From Candidatus Moraniibacteriota bacterium (GTDB taxonomy: Bacteria; Patescibacteriota; Minisyncoccia; Moranbacterales; UBA1568): DNA of 64,000 nucleotides. The notes under the pieces are model-generated. The model was given only the letters and a program-made list of their open reading frames with translations. It searched no databases and was not told the origin of the DNA. A program made the position numbers and the translations under genes. The stretch covers positions 208,627-272,626 of the forward strand of contig JAQTYF010000001.1 in assembly GCA_028688415.1 (NCBI GenBank), given 5' to 3'. How positions within the stretch are numbered: position 1 is the first letter of the stretch; each line of letters starts with the position of its first letter. Shown here in pieces: positions 9,025-26,581 of the stretch.

Positions 9025-10117
9025 ATGAGTACTATGAAAGAAAAAATAGCAGTTCTTCAACAAAAACTCCTGCAGTTGCAGGAATGTCTTTGACTTCGAG
9101 AAAAAAGATATTCGTAGAAAGGAGCTCCGTCTGCAGAGCGAAGCGCCAGGATTCTGGAACGATCCTCAGTCGGCTGGTCTCGTGATGCAAGAACTCGAAT
9201 CCCTCGAGAAAGAACGTTCTTCTTTTGCACAGTTTGAAAAAACTGTCGGAGAGACGAATGACATTGCATCCCTCGAGAATCTCTCTTCGGAAGATGAAAA
9301 AACGCTTGAGGAGGAATATCTCTCGATAGAACAGACATTCGCAGAGTGGGAGCTCAAAACCTTGCTCGGAGGAGAATATGACGATAAAGACGCTCTCCTG
9401 ACTGTCCGGAGTGGGGCAGGCGGTGTCGATGCCCAGGACTGGGCTGAGATGCTGTTTCGTATGTACTCTGCGTATGCGAGCAAACAGGGATGGAAGACAC
9501 GTCTCCTCGATGAATCTCGTGGCACTGAAGCAGGGATTAAAAGCGCCACTATGGAAATAAGCGGGAGATATGCATACGGATATCTCCATGGAGAAGCAGG
9601 CATTCACCGTCTCGTGAGACTCTCGCCATTTAATGCGAATAGTCTGAGACAAACATCGTTTGCCTCCATCGAAGTGATGCCGATCATCGATGAGAAAGGA
9701 ATGATCCCGATCAAGTCCGATGAACTCCGTATTGATACGTATCGATCCTCAGGTGCTGGTGGACAGAATGTCAACAAGACAGAGAGTGCTGTCCGTATCA
9801 CTCATATCCCGACAGGTCTCGTCGCTGCATGTCAGAGCGAGCGTTCTCAGCTCCAGAACAAAGAAGAAGCGATGAAGATGCTTCGTTCAAAAATGGTACA
9901 AAAACACATTGAAGAACAAGCGGAAGCAAAACGGAAACTCCGAGGTGATTTCAAGAGTGCTGGCTGGAGCAATCAGATCCGCTCATATGTCATCCATCCC
10001 TATACCCTCGTCAAGGATCATCGTACCGATACAGAAACGAGCGATACGACCAGAGTGCTCGGTGGTGATCTGCAGATGTTTATCGAAAGCGAACTCCGTT
10101 ACTTACAACTGTATTAA
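9025..10117 (+). CDS. prfB: peptide chain release factor 2, with programmed +1 ribosomal frameshift
   Basis: Frame 0 from ATG 9025 (or 9034) reads ...LQLQECL then in-frame TGA at 9091. The +1 frame continues DFEKKDIRR... into the 311-aa ORF containing SPF and GGQ motifs. Confidence 0.9.
9079..9094 (+). promoter_or_regulatory. prfB autoregulatory +1 frameshift site (CTT TGA C with upstream SD-like AGGA)
   Basis: cAGGAatgtCTTTGAC; identical slippery/stop context to the classical RF2 frameshift site. Confidence 0.8.
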
Positions 10118-12814: not shown

Positions 12815-12885
12815 TGGGGTGTGGCCAAGCGGTAAGGCAATGGGTTCTGGTCCCATGATCCTAGGTTCGAATCCTAGCACCCCAG
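12815..12885 (+). tRNA. tRNA-Gln (anticodon CUG)
   Basis: Acceptor TGGGGTG/CACCCCA (U1-A72 as in bacterial tRNA-Gln), anticodon arm ATGGG-TTCTGGT-CCCAT, T-arm CTAGGTTCGAATCCTAG, discriminator G. Confidence 0.85.
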
Positions 12886-14409
12886 CATTGTTGAACGATG
12901 AGAGGCGAGAGCCTCTTTTTTCGTTTCTATAGCGAGGGAATTCAGTTCGAAGGTACGTTTTCTCTCTGTCAGAGTCTCCACATCTTCACGAAGCCATAAG
13001 AAAGGATCATTAAGGTCGAAATACGCTAGCTTGCGGTCTTTCACGCCAATGTTCGAAGTGAAAACTTCTACGATATCTCGTTTCATTTCTTTCGTGCCGA
13101 GATTGAAGAGATTATGCGCTGTTTTTATGAAACGAACAGCCTGCTCGATCTCGTCTCCAAGTTCTGCAGTAGTATGTTTTGCGTTAGAGAGCTTCTCTTC
13201 GATATTTGCTTCTTCCATTGTGATTTCTGAATACTTTCTATCGTATATTTCTTTCGGCAGAGCATTATCGATAAACTTCTCGACCAGCGACTCTTTGCGT
13301 CGGCGTGTGTCTTCGAGTATATGGAGTAATCGCGCCTCCGTTTCTTTCGCGAGATTGTCTTCGCTTCTCAATTTCTCTTTCGATGCATCCACGATCAAAT
13401 CCAGTATCTCATCATCGAAATGAATCTTTTTCAATTCTTCTGCAATATGTTTCTCCAAATCTTCCTCTCGTGTGTATGGCTGAGAACATTGTCTCACGCC
13501 TTTGGACTTGGTACACCGATAATATGTGTGGCCTTTTTGTATTTCTGCCGTCACCTTGAGTCCACATTCACCGCATACGAGAAAGCCTCGATAGGTGAAC
13601 AATCGTTTCGTATGTTGCGTTTGCCATTTCTTTGGTTCGAGTCGTTTCGTCGCTTCTTCGAAAGTAGCGAGTGAAATGATTGGTTCGTGAACACCGTTAT
13701 ATACCTGTCCTTTCCATTTGAAGAGCCCAGCATAGACTGGATTCGTGAGGATTCTATACACAGTGCTTTTGCCGACCCTGTTGCCGAGACGTGAACGGAA
13801 TCCCTCTTCGTAGAGGGTATTCGCGATACTCTCAACAGAGAGATTATCCGAAATATAGAGATCAAAGACACGTAAAACAAAAGGGACGGCTTGTGGATCC
13901 TGAATCATCGCTTTTGTCTTATAGTCCGACATATAGCCGAAAGGACGTGGCCCAGGATATTCGCCTCGACGTACTTTCTCTGCCAATCCTCGTCTGACAT
14001 TCTTACTCAAATCACGGATGTACTGAGTCGCCATAGAAAACTCGATACTTGCCATCACGACGTTATCTTCTGGATTGTACTCTCGATCAAATGTTCGTAT
14101 CTGTTTGATTGTCTCATTCTGTAACATCCATTTCACCATTCCCTCATCGACAGGATTGCGCGCCAAGCGATCGATTTTCCAACAGAGTACTCCTTGTGCT
14201 TTCCCTTGTTGAATGAATTTCATCATCTCTGCAAAGACTGGTCGTCCGGGAGCTTTCGCAGATTTTGATTCTTGAAAAATTTTGATGACACTCAGACCTT
14301 CGCGTCTTGCGATTTCTTGCATTTCAATAATCTGAGATTGAATAGACAAAGATTGTCGATCTTCACTCTCAGTAGATTTTCTGGCGTAGATGATGTAGTG
14401 CATATTCAT
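12874..14409 (-). CDS. large serine recombinase (integrase)
   Basis: N-terminal resolvase catalytic domain (YARKST...), recombinase domain, zinc-ribbon cysteines (CGECG...CTKSKG) and a coiled-coil C-terminus. Its stop codon overlaps the tRNA-Gln 3' end. Start taken at M26/M28 of the listed ORF. Confidence 0.85.
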   Translation of the reverse strand: MNMHYIIYARKSTESEDRQSLSIQSQIIEMQEIARREGLSVIKIFQESKSAKAPGRPVFAEMMKFIQQGKAQGVLCWKIDRLARNPVDEGMVKWMLQNETIKQIRTFDREYNPEDNVVMASIEFSMATQYIRDLSKNVRRGLAEKVRRGEYPGPRPFGYMSDYKTKAMIQDPQAVPFVLRVFDLYISDNLSVESIANTLYEEGFRSRLGNRVGKSTVYRILTNPVYAGLFKWKGQVYNGVHEPIISLATFEEATKRLEPKKWQTQHTKRLFTYRGFLVCGECGLKVTAEIQKGHTYYRCTKSKGVRQCSQPYTREEDLEKHIAEELKKIHFDDEILDLIVDASKEKLRSEDNLAKETEARLLHILEDTRRRKESLVEKFIDNALPKEIYDRKYSEITMEEANIEEKLSNAKHTTAELGDEIEQAVRFIKTAHNLFNLGTKEMKRDIVEVFTSNIGVKDRKLAYFDLNDPFLWLREDVETLTERKRTFELNSLAIETKKEALASHRSTMLGC

Positions 14410-15551
14410 CAATTGAAAATATATCCGATGAGGAGGAATGTACCAAGACAAAGAAAGTACACAACGATTTCCATTGGACGCCATTTTGAAAAAGGAGGAG
14501 CTCCTTTGTAGCGGAAGTTTTTATGAGATAAATACATATTGCGCAAAACAAAAGGGCACCCTTCGTTGCACACAGATCCTTTCGGACACTGTACGAAGGA
14601 ATGCCCTTTCGTCGGAACAACTAAGAATAGTTGCTCCATGTGTCCGAAATATAAATCTGTGTGCATATACATAGTACAGTATTTTTAGTATTTTCTCCAA
14701 ATCCAAACTCTTTTTTCTCTGCCTCTTCATCGCCCGCGTCGCTTCCGCTCCTTCTTCGCTTCGCTCACTGCCCTGAGCAGGGCAGGCGGGCTTCGTCTCT
14801 GCCAGCTCTCCTCTCTCTACCTCTTCAAACTTCTCCCGACGCCCCCAACAAATGTCAGAGCTCGATTCGGTTTCTGCTTCTCACATCACCTCAGTCTCGC
14901 TCCGTCTTTCTTTCACCCATTATCGTTGTGCTCGGAACCATTCGAACATCGACTGGAATCAGGAGTGCCTCTTGTCCCTCTCCGCAGAAGACTCCTCTTC
15001 CTGACAGTAAGAGGAGACATCTGCTTCGTAATGGTGGACGAGACTGGCACTCCCGACCCATCCGACGTTCGCCTGCCGAGCACAGCAGATTTTATTGCGC
15101 GGAAAAATGAATGACACTCTTTCTCTTCCGACCCGTGTCCTCGTCGATATCAGGGTGGATACCCCCCGGCCACCCTTCCCTGATAGACGAAGGACAAAAC
15201 CGCACTCCCGACAAGCATCGCATAAGTGCAACCCCTATTATGCAACTCTCATCCCAGAGATGAGGTCGCATAATTGGCACTTATGCCGACGCGTATCGGA
15301 GAGGCGGTGGCGGGTCGGTGATGCCCTGTCATACTTTTCGGAGTACTTTCCGCGCACCCGAGACACCGAGCACTTGCATCTTCGCGTCGTTTCTATTGCT
15401 TCCTTTTTGGTGAGAGGAGTGGCTCCTTGCCAAATACCACCACGCCTCACCCGTTCCATTTTTTCCGCCCAGCAGATTTTTCATCCTCTCCATTTTTTCG
15501 CATCTCTTTGTGTTTTTCATTCTTCTTACTTCTTATATTGAAAAAGATTCT

Positions 15552-15689
15552 TTCTTTTTCGATTCGATCGATTTTTCTTTGTTTCGATGTCGTCCTTGTC
15601 GAACGACAACAGAAAAATCATGTGTCGTTCTCTTTTTTCGTTTCTTCTTTTTCGTATTTCTTCTTTTTCGATTCGATCGATTTTTCTTT
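15552..15689. repeat. iteron-like module: two identical 29-bp direct repeats flanking a 14-bp perfect palindrome
   Basis: ttctttttcgattcgatcgatttttcttt at 15552-15580 and 15661-15689. TTGTCGAACGACAA at 15596-15609. A very AT-rich tract follows (15690-15765). Confidence 0.5.
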
Positions 15690-15818
15690 AAATTAAAAAT
15701 TAGAATTACTTTTATTATTTAATTTTTCTTTTTAAATGCTTATTTTTTGTGCTCATTCTTGATACCATTTATTGGTGCAAGATATGCTCTCCGGTCGGTG
15801 TAATTGTTACACCTACCC

Positions 15819-16178
15819 CTATCTTTTCCTTTGTTTGATAAGAAGGATATATCTGTTTACCTTCCGTGAGTTTTTTGATGATCGTTCTACGCGAAGATAC
15901 CCGATTTCTTCTAATTCCCCAATAGCTTTAATGACAGTATTCTTCGCACAATTAGTTTCTGACGCGATTGTTCTTTGTGATGGATGACAATCTTCTTTTC
16001 CAGCGAATGTATGCATGACCAAATTACAATATACCAGTTTCGCTGGTCTAGTGAGCCGTTTGTCCAGAAGCACTTTATGTGGAATCATTGAAAACCCGAT
16101 TTCTCTCCATTTGTCACGAGAGTTTTTGATGTATCCTTCCATGCGATTTCCTCGATTGATTATGTTCTTTATCTCCAT
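15819..16178 (-). CDS. winged-helix HTH protein, phage/plasmid replisome-organizer N-terminal-like
   Basis: LVYCNLVMHTFAGKEDCHPSQRTIASETNCAKNTVIKAIGELEEIGYL matches the replication initiator/replisome organizer HTH pattern. Confidence 0.55.
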   Translation of the reverse strand: MEIKNIINRGNRMEGYIKNSRDKWREIGFSMIPHKVLLDKRLTRPAKLVYCNLVMHTFAGKEDCHPSQRTIASETNCAKNTVIKAIGELEEIGYLRVERSSKNSRKVNRYILLIKQRKR

Positions 16179-16198
16179 AGTGTTATGTTACTTTATTG

Positions 16199-16375
16199 AT
16201 TATTTTTTTGCTTATATATTTCCAAAAGCTCCAGCGCTATATTGCTGATTTTGGCAAATTGATCAAGAAATATTTCAGCTTGATCCTCAGTAATACTGAA
16301 ACCAGCGCGTTTCGACATTACACGTTGGCATCGCTTGATTAATCTATCGGAATATTTTCGTTGCATATTGATGGT
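16199..16375 (-). CDS. small hypothetical protein (58 aa), possibly co-transcribed with the HTH gene
   Basis: Manually read ORF MQRKYSDRLIKRCQRVMSKRAGFSITEDQAEIFLDQFAKISNIALELLEIYKQKNNQ, below the ORF-track size cutoff. No other support. Confidence 0.25.
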
Positions 16376-16536: not shown

Positions 16537-17667
16537 CTACCTGAAAGTCATGAATATAATATTTTGTTTCTTATCAATCTTAAATTGAAAGTCTTTCAAT
16601 TTTTTATCTCTCTGCAGTTCACCACGGGTATTTTTTACAAAATTAAACCTTTCTGTGTGATTTAATTGCTTGCCAAAATTCACAGTGCTTATATTTAATG
16701 GCTCTTTACGAATATCTACATAGACTGCGTCTATATTTCTCCCATCTCCAAAATTTTTGACAAGACACTCGAGAAGTTTGAATTTTTGTGTATCTTTGCC
16801 ACCAATTTTTATAGCAACTTCTCCTGCTATCTGAAGAAAGCCGATCTTTTCCTTTATAAAACACGTTGGCGCCACCTTCCTTTTTACCGCTTTCATTCCA
16901 ATCTTTTTGAGGAATTTTTTCTGTAAATCAATGCTAACGAAAAAGCGCGATTCATCACGAGCGTTCTTTTCACTGCCGAGGCTATTGATTTTTACATCAC
17001 TGTTTTCTTCAAGCGCTAACATACAATCCAGCAGTCGAAAGTCCTCTCCAAACTCAAAATCTTTTAGTACCAGTCCCTCCCCGTATTTCTCATAGTCCGT
17101 CCGCGCTCTCTTTTCGAAGATTGCCTCATGGTCTGAAAAGTTGAGATATGCAATGTTTACTTTTTGCAGATTGTCTTCAGAAAACGCTTTGGCGTAGCTC
17201 TTAATAAAACTGTGGAGACCGTTTCTTGCTTTCTCTGTCATTGTAATTTTGAAATTAACACCACTAAATAACACGGCGGAAATTTTTTCTTGCTTTTGGA
17301 ACACTTCTTCTAAATCTGTAAGTGTAAATTTATTTTCAATGATTCTTTTTACAGACGTATATTTTTGTAATGGATCAGGATGGCACATTTGATAGAGATG
17401 CTCTTTTATTCCTTTTTTATCAGCATAGAAAAGTCCATATCGGTCAAATTCAAATTGCTTCAATTGTATTCCATAAGCGCTGTTTATTTGCGAGATTGTT
17501 TGAAAGACATAGAGCAGTGCGGGTTTTTTAAAATTAAAGAATTGTATTTCTTCAAAATCAAAACTCTTTTGTTCCCCGTATGGATAGTCGATCAATTTCA
17601 AGATAAGAAATAAAATATCCTCATCAATATAGGCTAATTTTTTTGTTTCTTTGGTGGCGCTTTTCAT
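16537..17667 (-). CDS. hypothetical protein (376 aa) of the mobile element
   Basis: Long ORF, AT-rich, no domain recognised. Its position next to the replication-like HTH and origin-like repeats suggests a replication or maintenance role. Confidence 0.45.
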   Translation of the reverse strand: MKSATKETKKLAYIDEDILFLILKLIDYPYGEQKSFDFEEIQFFNFKKPALLYVFQTISQINSAYGIQLKQFEFDRYGLFYADKKGIKEHLYQMCHPDPLQKYTSVKRIIENKFTLTDLEEVFQKQEKISAVLFSGVNFKITMTEKARNGLHSFIKSYAKAFSEDNLQKVNIAYLNFSDHEAIFEKRARTDYEKYGEGLVLKDFEFGEDFRLLDCMLALEENSDVKINSLGSEKNARDESRFFVSIDLQKKFLKKIGMKAVKRKVAPTCFIKEKIGFLQIAGEVAIKIGGKDTQKFKLLECLVKNFGDGRNIDAVYVDIRKEPLNISTVNFGKQLNHTERFNFVKNTRGELQRDKKLKDFQFKIDKKQNIIFMTFR

Positions 17668-17920: not shown

Positions 17921-18835
17921 ATGGCACTATTCAAGATCAGCGGCTCTGTCGTCAAGAAGATAATCGTAAAGGATGCAGATTTAGAAAAAAATCTACAATC
18001 TCTATTTGAACAAAACTTAGAAGAGATCTTGAATATTAATTTTCTTGCTCATGAATATTCCACGAGTTTTGGTGGAAGAATGGATACTTTGGGTATAGAC
18101 AAAAATGGCTCACCCTGCATTATCGAGTATAAGAAAAGTCAGAACGATAATGTTATCAATCAAGGTCTTTCATATTTGCGCTGGCTTTTGGATCACAAGG
18201 CTGATTTTGAAATTTTATGCAAAAATAAAAATATCAACATTGATATTGATTGGGATTCACCACGAGTAATTTGTGTTGCGGAAAGTTATAACAAATTTGA
18301 TATAGATACGGCGGATATTTTACCAATCAATATTGAGCTTTTGAGATACAGGATTTATGAAAACGATATTCTTTATCTTGAACCGGAGAGCTACCAAAAA
18401 ATAAAAATTTCTACTTCTGGAATTATCAAGAAATCAAAAAATAACAATAAAGAAAAAACGGAACTTTTGCAAAAAGATTATTCTGTGGAGGATCATTTAA
18501 AAAAGGCTGACCAAAAAACAAATGATCTGTTTCACAAATTACGCGAAAAAATTATTTCCATCGATGAAGAAATAAGAGAGGAACCAAAGAAATTTTATAT
18601 AGCCTACAAGACAGCAACCAACTTCGCCGACTTGATTATCTATAAGAATGAAATCAGAATTACGCTCAATGTAAAAAGCGGAAAATTAATTGATGTATTC
18701 GACATGGCGACAGATTTTACAAAACCCAAGAAAGGCCACTGGGGTAATGGAGACTATGAGGTGAAATTAAGGGAAGAGAAAGATCTTGAGTCAGTTTTTC
18801 TTTTAATCAAGCAAAGTTATGATTTGAATAAGTAG
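17921..18835 (+). CDS. NucS/DUF91-like PD-(D/E)xK nuclease-fold protein (candidate restriction endonuclease)
   Basis: GGRMDTLGIDKNGSPCIIEYKK gives D...(E)YK motifs after an LEEIL...L helix, as in NucS-like nucleases. Stop is 4 nt before the MTase start. Confidence 0.5.
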   Translation: MALFKISGSVVKKIIVKDADLEKNLQSLFEQNLEEILNINFLAHEYSTSFGGRMDTLGIDKNGSPCIIEYKKSQNDNVINQGLSYLRWLLDHKADFEILCKNKNINIDIDWDSPRVICVAESYNKFDIDTADILPINIELLRYRIYENDILYLEPESYQKIKISTSGIIKKSKNNNKEKTELLQKDYSVEDHLKKADQKTNDLFHKLREKIISIDEEIREEPKKFYIAYKTATNFADLIIYKNEIRITLNVKSGKLIDVFDMATDFTKPKKGHWGNGDYEVKLREEKDLESVFLLIKQSYDLNK

Positions 18836-18838
18836 TTT

Positions 18839-19915
18839 ATGGAAAAGAAATCATCATCAAACAACAATTTACATAAGGCCAGCAAGGAAAAAAAGGATGA
18901 GTTTTATACTCAGCTTGTTGATATTGAAAAGGAGCTGAAACACTACAAAAGCCAATTTCGTGGCAAAGTGGTATATTGCAATTGCGACGATCCATTTGAG
19001 AGTAACTTTTTCAAATATTTTGCTAGCAATTTTAAAGAACTTGGATTGAAAAGACTTATCGCTACGAGCTACAAGCCGTCTCCTATTGCCAATACGGAAC
19101 TTGTATTGCAGCCATCCCTTCTTCTCGGTTATGAAGATAAGATTGTGAGACAGCCAGTAGAACCAAAAGGCCGTCCAAAGGTAACGGCAAATAAATTCAT
19201 TATCAACGAGGTTGATGATATAGATGGCGATGGTGCATTTGATTTGCGTGATATTGCCGAACAACTCAAGGTCAATAAAAACAACGAATGGCTACCGCTT
19301 AAAGGCGAGGGGGACTTTAGAAGCAAGGAAAGCATAGAGTTGCTAAAGCAGGCTGATATTGTGGTAACAAACCCACCTTTCTCGCTCTTTCGTGAATATA
19401 TTTCTCAGCTTGTTGAATATAACAAGAAGTTCTTAATTATTGGTAATGTTAATTCAATTACTTACAAAGAATGTTTCAAACTTATAAAGGATAACAAACT
19501 GTGGCTTGGAGCAAGTATTCATAGTGGTGATCGTGAATTTCAAGTACCAGATGATTATCCCTTAAATGCTGCTAGTTCTAGGATTGATAGTGATGGAAAA
19601 AAATATATTCGTGTCAAAGGCGTACGTTGGTTTACAAATCTAGACTATGAAGAGCGCCATGAAAATTTAGTATTGTACAAAACATATATCCCAAAAGAAT
19701 ATCCCAAATATGATAATTATGACGGAATAAACGTTGATAAAACCGCTGATATTCCAGTTGATTACAACGGTGCCATCGGTGTACCGATTACTTTTTTAGA
19801 TAAATACAATCCAGAACAATTTGAGATTGTAAAATTTAGAAAAGGCGACAATGATAAGGATTTAGTAATAAATGGGAAATCGCCGTATTTTAGAATAATA
19901 ATAAAGAAAAGATAA
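18839..19915 (+). CDS. DNA N6-adenine methyltransferase (NPPF motif)
   Basis: Motif IV IVVTNPPF. Size ~358 aa. Translationally coupled to flanking nuclease genes. Confidence 0.7.
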   Translation: MEKKSSSNNNLHKASKEKKDEFYTQLVDIEKELKHYKSQFRGKVVYCNCDDPFESNFFKYFASNFKELGLKRLIATSYKPSPIANTELVLQPSLLLGYEDKIVRQPVEPKGRPKVTANKFIINEVDDIDGDGAFDLRDIAEQLKVNKNNEWLPLKGEGDFRSKESIELLKQADIVVTNPPFSLFREYISQLVEYNKKFLIIGNVNSITYKECFKLIKDNKLWLGASIHSGDREFQVPDDYPLNAASSRIDSDGKKYIRVKGVRWFTNLDYEERHENLVLYKTYIPKEYPKYDNYDGINVDKTADIPVDYNGAIGVPITFLDKYNPEQFEIVKFRKGDNDKDLVINGKSPYFRIIIKKR

Positions 19916-19916
19916 T

Positions 19917-21020
19917 ATGAAAATTGATCTACACAGAATCAAAGTACGCGAAGTGATCGACGGCTACAAAGACAGCGCCGAAGAAGGTGTTGTTGCGTAT
20001 GGTGGCAAGCTCGATGTTCGCCCCAAGTATCAACGTGAATTCGTCTATAAAGACAAACAACGTGATGCGGTCATTGATACAGTCAAGAAAGGATTTCCGC
20101 TCAATGTGATGTATTGGGTAAAGACTGGTGCGGACAGTTTTGAGGTGCTGGATGGACAACAAAGAACAATTAGTATCGGACAATATGCAAATGGTGATTT
20201 CTCGGTGGACTTTAACGGTCGTACGGCCATGTTCCATAATCTCACCAAGGAGGAAAAAGACCAGATCCTTGATTATGAATTGATGGTTTATTTCTGCGAG
20301 GGTACTGATAAGGAAAAACTTGATTGGTTTAAAATTATCAACATTGCTGGTGAAAAATTGACTGACCAAGAGCTACGCAATGCCGTTTATACTGGCTCGT
20401 GGCTTTCTGACGTAAAACTCAAATTCAGTAAATCAAATTGCGCCGCGTATCTTTTGGCGAATGACGGCGGTGCATTGCTTACCGGTTCACCGATACGCCA
20501 AGAATATTTGGAAACTGCGCTCTCGTGGATAAATAACGGCGAAGTAGCGGAATACATGGCAAAGCATCAGCACGACAAAAACGCTAATGAATTGTGGGAG
20601 TATTTTCAAAATGTTATTGCATGGGTGCGCAAAGCATTCCCTAATCACCGCAAAGAAATGGCGAATGTGAATTGGGGCGAGCTGTACAACCAGTTCGAAG
20701 ATGAGAAATTGGACGCCAAAAAACTAGAAGCCGAAGTTACAAAGTTGATGCAGGACGAAGACGTAACGAAAAAATCTGGTATCTACCCCTATCTTCTCAC
20801 GAGTCAAGAAAGACATCTCTCAATACGCGCCTTTAACGACAAGATGAAGCGCGAAGCTTACGAGCGACAGAAAGGTGTTTGCGTAAAGTGTAGGAAAGAG
20901 TTTGCACTCGAAGAAATGGAAGCCGATCACATTACCCCTTGGCACGAGGGTGGTAAAACGACTGCGAAAAATTGTCAGATGTTGTGCAAACAAGATAACC
21001 GCACTAAATCTGGGAAATAA
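19917..21020 (+). CDS. DUF262 (ParB/Srx-like, DGQQR motif) + C-terminal HNH endonuclease
   Basis: EVLDGQQRTISIGQY DUF262 motif. C-terminal CVKCRKEF...ADHITPWHEGGKT...NCQMLCKQDNRTKS HNH motif. GmrSD-like architecture. Confidence 0.8.
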   Translation: MKIDLHRIKVREVIDGYKDSAEEGVVAYGGKLDVRPKYQREFVYKDKQRDAVIDTVKKGFPLNVMYWVKTGADSFEVLDGQQRTISIGQYANGDFSVDFNGRTAMFHNLTKEEKDQILDYELMVYFCEGTDKEKLDWFKIINIAGEKLTDQELRNAVYTGSWLSDVKLKFSKSNCAAYLLANDGGALLTGSPIRQEYLETALSWINNGEVAEYMAKHQHDKNANELWEYFQNVIAWVRKAFPNHRKEMANVNWGELYNQFEDEKLDAKKLEAEVTKLMQDEDVTKKSGIYPYLLTSQERHLSIRAFNDKMKREAYERQKGVCVKCRKEFALEEMEADHITPWHEGGKTTAKNCQMLCKQDNRTKSGK

Positions 21021-21025
21021 GAGAA

Positions 21026-22219
21026 ATGACAACTCAAAATACAACTGATGGTGGATACTACGCAATAAAAGGATTTGCTTATCAAATAGACAAAGCTATT
21101 TTAGAGCTTTTAAATACTGACGATAATAATGCAAATATAAATATTGAGCAAATCCAAGACATTGACTCAAATAGTTATGTTATACAAGTTAAGTATAAAG
21201 AAAATGCAAAATTAGTGCCTTCACAAGTTAATAAACCAATATCTCAACTTATCGAGGAATTTAAAAAAGATAATAAAAAAAGTTATATCTTATATGTCTT
21301 TTTTTCGGATTTAAATGGATATGCTGATAAGGTTGATAAAGATAAAAAAATTTCAAAAGAAACATTGGACGAGCTTTTGGGAACTCAAAAAGATATATTC
21401 ACAAATCAGGAAAAAAAGAATTTTGCTAATAATTTTTACTTATTTCTTTCTCCTGAATTTCAAGCCCAATTCAATAGTATAATTTTAAAATTAAAAGAAG
21501 CAGGATTTGGAGATACTGATGAAGAGACAATATTTTACTATGCAAATATTTCGGACTATCTTTATAAAAAAGTTTGTAATAATTCAATAGCACAAGTCCG
21601 GAAGAGAACCTGTACTCAAAAAGAAATTTTTGATTATTTAAAAAATGGTAAAAAGTTAATTTCAAACTCTTCTTTTAGAGAGTATCAAGGAGATCAAAAA
21701 TACTTTAATTTTAATAAGAAACAATTCTTTAGTCAGAGAAATATTGATTATTTTGAAAGATTTATTGTAGTGGAATTGAACGGAGATGAAGACGTGGCGG
21801 AACTAAAGGAAATCTTATATAAAATAAAAAATAAATTCTACAACATTTCAGGGGATTGGACTTTTAAAAGAATAAAATCTCCCGCACCATACGTATTCCT
21901 AAAAAATATCTCGGAAGAAAAATTAATATTATTAAAAACCCAAATCTTAAAAGAGGGAATGGTTTTTAAAGATGGTTTTGATTTTCATGGCGCTCTCTTT
22001 TCTTTAACTTCAATAAAAGCAGATTCTACAACTCATAATAACCTTTGTTTGAAATTAATAAACAATGAAGAAAATTTTCAAAGTTTAATTGGTGAAGATT
22101 TTAAGAAAACAAAAGAAGTTTATCAGTTTTATATAAATGAAAGTATACCAATTGAATCTGATATAAAAAATATAAGTATAAAAATTAAAAATATTTTAGA
22201 TATTAAATTTATTCTTTAA
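21026..22219 (+). CDS. divergent DUF4297-like (Cap4-nuclease-like) protein, partner of HerA
   Basis: N-terminal GGYYAIKGFAYQIDKAILELL followed by D...QVK, compatible with the DUF4297 PD-(D/E)xK-like N-domain. 397 aa and immediately upstream of HerA, as in described DUF4297-HerA pairs. Very AT-rich, so assignment from memory is tentative. Confidence 0.45.
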   Translation: MTTQNTTDGGYYAIKGFAYQIDKAILELLNTDDNNANINIEQIQDIDSNSYVIQVKYKENAKLVPSQVNKPISQLIEEFKKDNKKSYILYVFFSDLNGYADKVDKDKKISKETLDELLGTQKDIFTNQEKKNFANNFYLFLSPEFQAQFNSIILKLKEAGFGDTDEETIFYYANISDYLYKKVCNNSIAQVRKRTCTQKEIFDYLKNGKKLISNSSFREYQGDQKYFNFNKKQFFSQRNIDYFERFIVVELNGDEDVAELKEILYKIKNKFYNISGDWTFKRIKSPAPYVFLKNISEEKLILLKTQILKEGMVFKDGFDFHGALFSLTSIKADSTTHNNLCLKLINNEENFQSLIGEDFKKTKEVYQFYINESIPIESDIKNISIKIKNILDIKFIL

Positions 22220-22230
22220 TTTTAAATATT

Positions 22231-24009
22231 ATGACAAGTTCAACAGGTGAAAAACTTGCTTTTGTGACCTCTGTATTTCCAAATAAAGTAAGAATTGAAG
22301 TCGTAAACCTAACAGCTTTCAAAGCCAATATTGATGACGCTCTGGGAGATTTGAAGATAGGCTCTTATCTTGAAATTTCCGATAATGATGGCTGTAGGCT
22401 GATAGCTATAATTGAAAGCTATCAAATAGAATTAAAAGAAAGAATTATTGAAAACGAACAAGGCGGAAAAGAAAAAGAAATTTACAATGCTTATGTTTTA
22501 GAGGCTAGTCCTCTTGGAACGATAAAGGATGGAAAATTTATAAGAGGTGGCGATGCATTGACCATTCCACCAACAGAAGTAAGGCCTGCTAACGCAGCCG
22601 ATATTAAACTTATTTATGAGACAGGTTTCGATGTCGCAGAAAAATTCTGTTTTGCAAAACTATCACAAGATGAAAACATATGTGTCCCCGTGAATGGAAA
22701 CAAATTTTTTAATAAACATTTTGCGGTGGTCGGTTCAAGTGGTTCTGGAAAATCACACACTATAGCAAAAATTTTACAAAATACTATTGATATAGAAAAA
22801 GGAACAAGAGCTTTTGATTTAAACAATTCACACATTATAATTTTCGATATTCACAATGAGTATAAAACAGCTTTCCCGGATGCAAATTTTTTGAACGTTG
22901 AAAATCTTATTTTGCCGTACTGGCTTTTGAATAGTGAGGAGCTAGAGGAATTATTTTTAGACACTGAAGCAAATGATCATAATCAAAGAAATATATTTAA
23001 GGAAGCAATTATAAATGAAAAAATTTCAAATGTAGTTAAAATGGAAAATGAAGATGCTACCGAATTTGAAAAAAGAAAGCAAAAAATTCACTATGACTCA
23101 CCAGTGCTATTTGATATTGGAAAAGTTTTAGAGATAGCAAATAATAAAAATGATGAAATGATAGATACTGGTGAAGTATATGCAAGTGGTGCAAAAAAAG
23201 GACAACCAAAAATGAATCAAGGATCTCTATTCGGTAAATTAACTAATTTTGTGAGTAGACTAGAAAATAAAGTTAACGATAAAAGATTTGATTTTTTACT
23301 AGGAGACAATTCCAAAGCTGTGTCATTTGAAGATACAATCAAACAATTTGTCGGCTATAATAAGCGTAAGAAAAAAAATGAGAGCGGAGAGGAAGTAGAA
23401 ATAGACAAATCAAACGTCACCATAATTGATTTAAGTGGGGTGCCCTTTGAAGTATTAAGTATTACCGTGTCCCTAATTTCCAGAATTTTGTTTGATTATG
23501 GTTATTTTTATAAAAAATACTTAAACGACGGAGTTGATTTAGAAACACCCCTTTTACTGGTCTATGAAGAAGCTCATAAATACGTACCAAAAAGTGATTC
23601 TGAAAAATTTAAAGCGTCAAGAAATGCAATTGAAAGAATTGCAAAGGAGGGTAGAAAATATGGTGTTACATTGGGCATAGTGAGTCAGAGACCATCAGAG
23701 ATATCAGAAACAATATTTTCTCAGTGTAATAATTTTATTGCTATGAGATTAACCAATCCAAGTGATCAAAACTACGTAAGAAGGCTATTACCAGATACCT
23801 TGGGAAATCTAATTGAAGCCCTTCCATCCTTACAGTCGGGTGAAGGATTGCTTTTAGGTGAAGCAGTAGCGATGCCATCTTTAGTAAAAATTGATAAATG
23901 TGAAGCTGATAAACAACCCTCTTCTAATGATGTGAAATATTTAGAAATTTGGAAGGATGAATGGAAAGATGTGAATTTTGAAAATATAATAGCAGAATGG
24001 AAAAAATAA
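22231..24009 (+). CDS. HerA-family (FtsK/HerA-type) ATPase/helicase
   Basis: Walker A VVGSSGSGKSHT, Walker B LLLVYEEAHKY, the typical HerA N-terminal barrel region, ~590 aa. Confidence 0.8.
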   Translation: MTSSTGEKLAFVTSVFPNKVRIEVVNLTAFKANIDDALGDLKIGSYLEISDNDGCRLIAIIESYQIELKERIIENEQGGKEKEIYNAYVLEASPLGTIKDGKFIRGGDALTIPPTEVRPANAADIKLIYETGFDVAEKFCFAKLSQDENICVPVNGNKFFNKHFAVVGSSGSGKSHTIAKILQNTIDIEKGTRAFDLNNSHIIIFDIHNEYKTAFPDANFLNVENLILPYWLLNSEELEELFLDTEANDHNQRNIFKEAIINEKISNVVKMENEDATEFEKRKQKIHYDSPVLFDIGKVLEIANNKNDEMIDTGEVYASGAKKGQPKMNQGSLFGKLTNFVSRLENKVNDKRFDFLLGDNSKAVSFEDTIKQFVGYNKRKKKNESGEEVEIDKSNVTIIDLSGVPFEVLSITVSLISRILFDYGYFYKKYLNDGVDLETPLLLVYEEAHKYVPKSDSEKFKASRNAIERIAKEGRKYGVTLGIVSQRPSEISETIFSQCNNFIAMRLTNPSDQNYVRRLLPDTLGNLIEALPSLQSGEGLLLGEAVAMPSLVKIDKCEADKQPSSNDVKYLEIWKDEWKDVNFENIIAEWKK

Positions 24010-26265: not shown

Positions 26266-26380
26266 CAAGCTTCTCTATCCGAAGTAATATCAATTCAAGT
26301 CCCTTCCTCTTTTCAATCAAATGTGCAAGAATTGAAGGGTAAAATCCGTTCACAACCGCATCCCTCCACCCCAGCATTGA

Positions 26381-26412: not shown

Positions 26413-26581
26413 TGTTTTAATATAGGTGCCAGGAGTCGAAGTTTATGCCCTTTAGGGTAAATCCTAGCACCTCAGCCACGAAAAGTGGCTTCGCCACCTC
26501 GTGGCCTTAGGCCAATAAAATGGCTTTTCAGGCCTCTTAAAGTGAGCAGTGAGTATTCCTAGTACCTCAGAAAAAAAATTT

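Follow-up and report, generated by a model that had tools for sequence, protein, structure and literature searches.

The window analysed here, 64,000 nt of contig JAQTYF010000001.1 (positions 208,627 to 272,626 of the forward strand), belongs to the chromosome of a Moranbacteria genome (Candidatus Moraniibacteriota bacterium) and contains a serine-recombinase island of about 13.5 kb, inserted at a tRNA-Gln gene. This study concerns a non-coding region of the island (15490-15815), which is located 3′ of the gene for a small winged-helix protein of the HTH_36 family and 5′ of a GC-rich structured element on the same strand. The 119-aa HTH_36 protein is encoded in a minus-strand operon together with proteins of 376 and 57 aa. 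An earlier note had described the region as the putative replication origin of the element; here it is tentatively explained as a protein-binding control region. The mobile elements of candidate phyla radiation (CPR) bacteria are almost unstudied, and these bacteria cannot yet be grown alone. The coordinates of all features are given in Table 1.

Repeats and sites of the non-coding region

The 29-nt sequence TTCTTTTTCGATTCGATCGATTTTTCTTT was found in two identical copies in the whole window (R1 and R2 in Table 1), confirming the direct repeats of the earlier note, and no further copy with three or fewer mismatches was present in the 64 kb (0 expected from 100 shuffles). Over 34 nt (15547-15580 and 15656-15689), the two copies are still 94% identical, and their spacing is 109 nt. 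Each copy contains, as had been noticed, the 8-bp palindrome TCGATCGA, more precisely described as the inverted repeat TCGAT-NNN-ATCGA (15559-15571 and 15668-15680), and the tetranucleotide TCGA reaches a density of 8 per 150 nt at the repeats compared with 5.4 per kb across the locus. The repeats are real and non-random. Between them, TTGTCGAACGACAA (15596-15609), formerly taken for a perfect 14-bp palindrome, turned out to be an inverted repeat with 6+6 arms, TTGTCG/CGACAA, around a central AA that is not self-complementary. A third CGACA half-site lies 4 nt from this inverted repeat, and the minus strand of 15588-15601 reads CGACAAGGACGACA.

The A/T tract after the second copy (76 nt) has a GC content of 15.8%, with 9.8% in its initial 51 nt, and ranks in the lowest 0.2% of 75-nt windows in the whole window and in the lowest 0.8% in the island. 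The tract, put at about 75 bp in the earlier note, is thus extreme for the window but not nearly pure A/T. Over 15480-15700, the minus strand is 71% purine. The repeat region has little tendency to fold (z -2.8 for 321 nt of RNA, z -1.1 as DNA) compared with the adjoining GC-rich element (z -9.2), which fits sites in duplex DNA rather than a folded RNA. No DnaA box TTATCCACA with one mismatch or fewer was found from 5.4 to 20.3 kb, and the window-wide count equalled the chance expectation. A DNA search of phage and plasmid collections with 14485-16200 gave no match, and a second sample carrying the same island was 100% identical across 5.3 kb.

Table 1. Features of the island, listed by position in the window, with strand.
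Feature	Position	Strand	Remarks
tRNA-Gln(CTG), integration target	12815-12886	+	attL core 12868-12890
Large serine recombinase (Resolvase + Recombinase + Zn_ribbon_recom)	12874-14409	-	stop codon within the tRNA 3′ end
Small open reading frame, 42 aa	14409-14537	-	...RYKGAPPFSKW... and hydrophobic tail; stop overlaps recombinase start
Recombinase leader	14542-14686	-	about 145 nt; upstream of recombinase; 15 distinct loci (alignment A4)
Leader, terminator stem C/C′	14593-14606 with 14554-14566	-	U tract 14545-14553
Leader, helix A/A′	14655-14664 with 14568-14577	-	
Leader, helix B/B′	14640-14649 with 14580-14589	-	
Leader, hairpin	14614-14637	-	
Extended -10-like box (TGnTATnAT)	14670-14679	-	conserved, promoter-like; start of leader; a leader of about 125 nt follows
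GC-rich element	14690-15470	-	54% GC, no open reading frame; conserved core 15097-15355; long arm 14927-15084 variable
ATGCGAAAAAATGG	15490-15503	-	degenerate counterpart of the ATGCGGAA motif
Repeat R1	15552-15580	.	identical to R2; insertion/duplication relative to L105/L106, which hold degenerate TCGAAAAATCACGG there
Inverted repeat TGTCG-NN-CGACA and third CGACA half-site	15588-15609	.	candidate HTH_36 binding site
Purine tract GAAAAAGAAGAAACGAAAAAAGAGAACGAC	15624-15653	-	counterpart of AAGAAAAGAAAAGGAAGCGAAAAGAAAAGAA(A)CGAC
Repeat R2	15661-15689	.	nearest to HTH_36 gene; minus strand AAAGAAAAATCGATCGAATCGAAAAAGAA; aligns with TCGAA cluster of L105/L106
AT-rich tract	15690-15765	.	15.8% GC; sequence conserved with L105
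HTH_36 winged-helix protein, 119 aa	15819-16178	-	Pfam E 3e-12; N-terminal DNA-binding domain of initiators, without the C-terminal part
57-aa protein, no known function	16193-16366	-	conserved in related islands
376-aa protein, no known function	16537-17667	-	family present in some related islands, replaced in others
HTH_17 excisionase-type protein, 65 aa	17716-17913	+	divergent from the 376-aa gene
attR	26357-26379	.	83% copy of the tRNA 3′ end; shared core CACCCCAGCATTG

Nine related islands (L003, L011, L012, L016, L091, L092, L104, L105 and L106) were collected via the 376-aa protein and the recombinase, several of them at the same ftsX-side locus. Their common order is small genes, a purine-rich, repeat-laden spacer, a GC-rich stretch free of open reading frames (ORFs), a conserved element of ~145 nt and the recombinase. 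HTH_36 is carried by L091, L092, L105 and L106 besides the window; a 69-aa protein and CxxC proteins take its place in L003, L011 and L104, and L012 and L016 have a CxxC protein, with no HTH_36 gene seen beside the spacer. In L105 and L106, the 376-aa family is replaced by unrelated proteins at the same position. The other large and small proteins of the related islands gave no credible family match.

The exact 29-mers occur in 0 of the nine related islands, an absence that the earlier note itself had named as counting against an origin. In alignment A5 of the closest islands, R2 stands opposite a TCGAA cluster, R1 is an insertion, and both the inverted repeat and the third half-site beside it are conserved. 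Flanking the inverted repeat in L105 are two degenerate motifs, TCGAAAGAATACGG and TCGAAAAATCACGG, at a distance of 93 nt. As judged from this alignment, one 29-mer copy is a lineage-specific duplication of the TCGAA/TCGAATC motif type. TGTCG-NN-CGACA, with the additional CGACA, is common to the window, L105 and L106, the three islands with the recognition helix SKNT(V/A)IKAI; L091 and L092 have other recognition helices and other inverted repeats. The centre bases of the inverted repeat differ among islands. By the comparison of these five islands, the candidate HTH_36 site is the inverted repeat rather than the 29-mers. In L092 (5205-5270), two copies of CACCCAGTGAAC and inverted GTTCACC copies replace the TCGA repeats directly after the divergent HTH_36 gene. 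Such element-specific sites would be consistent with co-evolution of protein and site. Between the window and L105, HTH_36 shows 77-82% identity and the next ~250 nt 55-72%, forming one conserved block; the gene upstream of this block is unrelated (~35% identity, no profile match).

Motifs were counted on the same strand in the 5′ regions of 10 islands and in the rest of their loci, which total 134 kb. TCGAATC was found at 1.62 versus 0.08 per kb (20-fold) and TCGAAA at 4.5 versus 0.77 per kb (6-fold). The ATGCGGAA motif occurs in 5 of the 10 5′ regions and nowhere else in the 134 kb; in the form (A)AAATGCGGAA(C/T) it lies upstream of the structured element in L003 (12540), L011 (1316), L091 (5915), L104 (5207) and L106 (5769), with or without HTH_36, and is possibly an RNA 5′ end, a binding site or a short-peptide start. 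A possible peptide starting at ATGCGGAA was conserved neither in length nor in frame and was rejected. The 31-nt purine run of AAGAAAAGAAAAGGAAGCGAAAAGAAAAGAA(A)CGAC is identical in L003 and L016. The purine and TCGA motifs are also present in the HTH_36-less islands L003, L011, L104 and L016, and therefore belong with the downstream module. The comparison of the islands shows that the region holds two kinds of site, one apparently tied to HTH_36 and the other to whatever all islands share.

The matches of HTH_36 are to replication initiators of phages and plasmids, to O-like proteins and to DnaD-like loaders, in each case to the N-terminal winged helix (PHROG 270, 8102, 186 and 428; E 5e-15 to 1e-10), and it also resembles RepA-like and O-like phage proteins. 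Full-length stand-alone homologues of ~110 aa are found at the head of a helix-turn-helix/hypothetical/ATPase/DnaB module in C. botulinum plasmids, and a longer homologue upstream of a DnaB-like helicase in a Bacillus plasmid. HTH_36 has been reported in the literature from Shiga toxin (Stx)-phage replication regions. It has also been reported in plasmid Rep proteins, and has been termed a domain "conserved in many transcription regulators" (PMC3832669). The description of the adjacent gene as replisome-organizer-like agrees with this N-terminal initiator homology; the matches span only ~90 N-terminal positions of 300-450-residue profiles.

The structured element and the recombinase leader

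The GC-rich element had a predicted fold energy of -322.6 kcal/mol (z -9.2) on the minus strand compared with -269.3 kcal/mol (z -8.2) on the plus strand. It aligns over its full length with L105 (nhmmer E 4.5e-55), and the consensus energy of this pair was -177.9 kcal/mol in the recombinase sense versus -143.2 kcal/mol on the opposite strand. An invariant 32-nt hairpin loop motif (CAGGGAAGGGTGGCCGGGGGGTATCCACCCTG, 15151-15182) is common to the window, L105 and L106. The hairpin at 15220-15286 is found again, with compensatory changes, in L011, L092 and L104, a group that is otherwise unalignable and in which double changes were found in 31 of 362 predicted pairs compared with 3-8 in slid controls; no strand preference was observed in this group (-425.5 versus -419.4). 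Counterparts are located in L003 (12640-13400), L011 (1400-2800), L092 (5440-6700), L104 (5300-6700), L105 (5935-6700) and L106 (5860-6700), and across islands the element is 0.8-1.6 kb long, has 54-83% GC, is ORF-free and lies upstream of the serine recombinase.

Gene calls over the element were considered and rejected. Antisense calls of 273-324 aa (minus strand; L003 12772-13620, L091 5786-6634, L093 6167-6988) were not similar as proteins except where one stretch is identical in nucleotides. For a 391-aa sense ORF of L011 (1316-2491), substitutions were distributed 85/70/73 by codon position, and 11 of 11 indels relative to L104 were frame-breaking. By these comparisons, the ORFs called over the element are high-GC artefacts and it is non-coding. 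With Rfam 15, in a search covering both the element and the leader described below, only tRNAs reached the gathering score in the window, and nothing credible appeared at E values up to 10 for the window region or up to 1 for L104 and L003. A literature search returned nothing relevant on serine-recombinase-associated structured RNA in CPR bacteria. The element is a candidate new large structured RNA, with its strand weakly resolved. Like the GOLLD, ROOL, HEARO, OLE and ICP1/PLE RNAs, it is ORF-free, GC-rich in an AT-rich genome and heavily structured, shows compensatory changes and lies on a mobile element near a tRNA gene. Unlike them, it has no Rfam 15 family, is tied to a serine recombinase in Moranbacteria-like genomes and is known here from sequence alone. 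Non-coding transcripts are known from ICP1 and PLE satellites (PMC7567579).

Upstream of the recombinase, the leader was aligned from 15 loci. In this alignment, 90.4% of cells pair and double changes were found in 21 of 39 pairs, a number that 0 of 500 shuffles reached and that compares with 2-7 in slid controls. The leader can form either a long helix (A/A′ and B/B′) or the terminator C/C′ with its U tract, the loop of which would enclose A′ and B′. By its covariation pattern, the leader is a terminator/antiterminator arrangement with conserved, mutually exclusive helices, through which recombinase expression may be attenuated in a riboswitch-like manner or under protein control. Pairing of the leader, in antisense, with the region upstream was rejected, as only G-U-rich matches of 11 nt were found.

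Between the leader terminator and the recombinase, a small ORF of 39-50 aa is conserved across at least 11 loci, with the pattern RYKGAxPxWxW/M..E followed by a hydrophobic segment. The overlap of its stop codon with the recombinase start suggests translational coupling of the two. Public gene calls extend this ORF spuriously through the leader (87-135 aa). For the recombinase start, the mechanical ORF reaches 14484, the public annotation gives 14403, and a Met codon overlapping the small-ORF stop lies at 14407-14409. Novelty at this locus lies more in the structured element and the recombinase leader than in the 29-mers, which are a lineage-specific detail.

Proposed functions of the non-coding region

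The explanation that we prefer, while holding it short of even odds, is that 15490-15815 is a cis-acting control region of the island at which proteins bind duplex DNA. The 29-mers are placed on either side of the HTH_36-linked inverted repeat. In this model, an HTH_36 dimer would occupy the inverted repeat, and the TCGA and purine motifs around it would be bound by another factor that all islands share, for which the 57-aa protein, the large upstream protein and the recombinase are candidates. The assembled complex would control the entry of transcription, coming from the operon or starting at a weak local promoter, into the structured element, and would thereby tie island gene expression to the decision between excision and integration. 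In favour of this explanation are the position of the region between HTH_36 and the structured element, the block conserved with L105, the inverted repeat that goes with one recognition helix, the enrichment of the TCGA motifs and of ATGCGGAA, their presence in HTH_36-less islands, the weak folding and the description of HTH_36 as a regulator domain. Operator clusters of small winged-helix or helix-turn-helix regulators have a palindromic core and distant auxiliary sites. The region resembles them in its palindromic core flanked by repeats ~100 bp apart and in the adjoining gene for a small stand-alone DNA-binding protein, and differs from them in the location of the sites downstream of the regulator gene, where the analysis identified no promoter. 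A role as promoter/operator of the HTH gene, considered in the earlier note as the alternative to an origin, is excluded by this geometry, as the region lies downstream of the HTH_36 stop codon and therefore cannot be the promoter or operator of that gene.

Several observations weigh against a protein-binding control region. A generic sigma-70 scan found no promoter on the relevant strand of the repeat region, and a scan for the extended -10 of the island family (TGnTATnAT) found a box solely at the recombinase leader; as no convincing promoter was found in the region, the regulated target is not defined. The link between recognition helix and inverted repeat comes from five islands only. The strong PHROG matches of HTH_36 comprise only replication initiators and helicase loaders, with no repressors among them, and the extreme AT tract is poorly accounted for by a simple operator model.

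A replication origin of the excised island, as put forward in the earlier note, is a possible but rather doubtful alternative. HTH_36 would then serve as a minimal initiator at the inverted repeat and the flanking repeats, the AT tract would melt, and the replisome of the host or of a helper phage would be recruited. Iteron-type theta plasmid origins likewise combine direct repeats with an inverted repeat, an AT-rich tract and the gene of a winged-helix protein. Unlike in those origins, a phased tandem array is absent and HTH_36 is a single-domain protein rather than a two-winged-helix RepA/RepE. The repeats lack two defining features of an iteron origin that were tested, a phased array of at least three and a DnaA box; a third, an AT-rich tract adjoining the repeats, is present. 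The classic layout of iterons, DNA unwinding element and initiator that had been proposed does not describe this region, which has two non-phased long copies, 109 bp apart and unique to the lineage, no DnaA box and an AT tract outside the repeat pair. The HTH_36 gene and the sites are inherited as a single block, the matches of the protein include the DNA-binding domain of initiators as well as DnaD-like loaders, and homologues occur in plasmid replication modules; against this, HTH_36 is without the C-terminal 200-350 residues of the matched initiators, and the motif content of the 29-mers is also present in HTH_36-less islands. No helicase, primase or loader domain was found among the island ORFs. 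Satellites encoding an initiator alone are a precedent for an origin, as are islands with an origin just 3′ of rep. In Salmonella genomic island 1 (SGI1), oriV has four 17-bp iterons, a DnaA box and a full RepA, and the origin of Staphylococcus aureus pathogenicity islands (SaPI) has a central AT tract flanked on both sides by short iterons, 6-12 in number, and works with a helicase-type Rep (PMC7433901, PMC9371898). The present locus is like both in being an integrative island with a cis site directly 3′ of an initiator-type gene, with repeats beside the most AT-rich 75 nt of the region, and here too any replication would come after excision (PMC7433901, PMC9371898). It is unlike them in having two 29-mers 109 bp apart around an inverted repeat, an AT tract outside, no DnaA box and a 119-aa winged helix alone, and unlike the origins of SaPI and other phage-inducible chromosomal islands (PICI) in that the repeats are direct instead of in opposite orientation and that a Rep helicase domain or primase is absent. 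The switch in GC skew and gene orientation lies at ~17.7 kb, not at 15.6 kb, no close relative was found in the viral, plasmid and phage collections, and the island was integrated in all recovered contigs. If true, an origin would be a first handle for CPR replicons.

The remaining alternatives are less probable still. An RNA-level element is improbable; here a long transcript running into the structured element would have the purine/TCGA stretch as its unstructured 5′ part or as a spacer, and the repeats would work within the RNA, for example as protein-binding or R-loop-forming tracts. The purine bias of the minus strand would agree with this, as would the finding that both island types conserve, at nucleotide level, a purine tract and the ATGCGGAA motif ahead of the structured element, the better consensus fold of the window and L105 element on the same strand, and the lack of a promoter of its own for the structured element in scans, which suggests read-through from the operon. 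TCGA palindromes and an inverted repeat that tracks the recognition helix typify duplex DNA sites, however, the repeat region is scarcely structured, and the structured element of L011/L104/L092 shows no strand preference. Even less probable is a recent neutral duplication in a low-complexity spacer, by which the long repeat would be functionless. The identity of the copies suggests a recent origin, R1 is missing from the closest relatives L105 and L106, and the complete identity of the second sample gives no population evidence of constraint; on the other side, what was duplicated is exactly the kind of motif that related islands have in excess at this position, and L105 has its analogous degenerate pair around the same inverted repeat. 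It is scarcely credible that the serine recombinase uses the inverted repeat as an internal pseudo-att or accessory site. TTGTCGAACGACAA resembles the island-side arm of attL, TTGTTGAACGATGA, at 11 of 14 positions, and the reconstructed attP has inverted arms, CGTTCA(C)AAC (CGTTCACAAC) ... GTTGAACG. The likeness is short and was found post hoc, and the centre bases vary among islands. The pseudo-att site was rejected on spacing, as serine-recombinase half-sites lie ~40 bp apart around a central dinucleotide and the arms here are 2 bp apart; the real att cores are those of the tRNA gene and attR (Table 1).

A broader proposal, unlikely as it stands, is that the repeats mark the entry to an undescribed non-coding module, the conserved core of a family of serine-recombinase islands in Moranbacteria-like (CPR) bacteria, made up of the purine/TCGA binding region, a new-class RNA of 0.8-1.6 kb, the riboswitch-like leader and a small membrane peptide coupled to the recombinase. 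The large RNA would have a part in the island life cycle; it might, for example, form an RNA-primed origin jointly with the HTH_36 site, or regulate excision and integration or serve as their cofactor. The comparison defines the core of the island family as recombinase, leader, small peptide, structured element, binding-site region and small DNA-binding proteins, and gives concrete cis sites and proteins for in vitro work. A new structured RNA tied to a serine recombinase, if true, would be a rare new class of large non-coding RNA and possibly an RNA layer in the control of site-specific recombination.

Boundaries, cargo and neighbouring proteins of the island

That the element is integrative was confirmed by its bounds. 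The attR copy of the tRNA 3′ end gives the island a length of ~13.5 kb, and its GC content is 36% compared with 39-44% in the flanks. A second, weaker copy of the tRNA end is found at 26458-26480. A scan of genome contigs with the recombinase gave one relative, with 31% identity, and a scan of viral contigs with the recombinase alignment gave relatives at 30% identity or less only.

The cargo at 17921-24009 consists of defence genes, namely a PDC-S18 candidate (DUF5655), an EcoRI-type methylase with a GmrSD_N-HNH type II nuclease, and a DUF4297-HerA pair, of which the HerA of the island is part. L105 carries the same methylase, the GmrSD_N-HNH nuclease and a HerA-type gene, and the other related islands have different restriction or GmrSD genes.

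The 376-aa gene, described in the earlier note as right next to the region, is separated from the HTH_36 gene by the conserved 57-aa gene. For the 376-aa protein, 75 relatives were detected in a set of 1.8 billion representatives, and there was no family match and no match in the PDB. Its AlphaFold2 model is confident (predicted local distance difference test score, pLDDT, 90.4) and overall has no significant structural neighbour; in model comparison, the C-terminal ~110 residues resemble an OmpR/PhoB-type winged helix. No similarity to known replication proteins was found by sequence or fold, and Foldseek of the model gave no Rep match. Elsewhere in the window, the ORF of prfB (release factor 2, RF2; 9182-10117) starts at position 28 of the PCRF profile, which would fit the usual +1 frameshift site lying just upstream.

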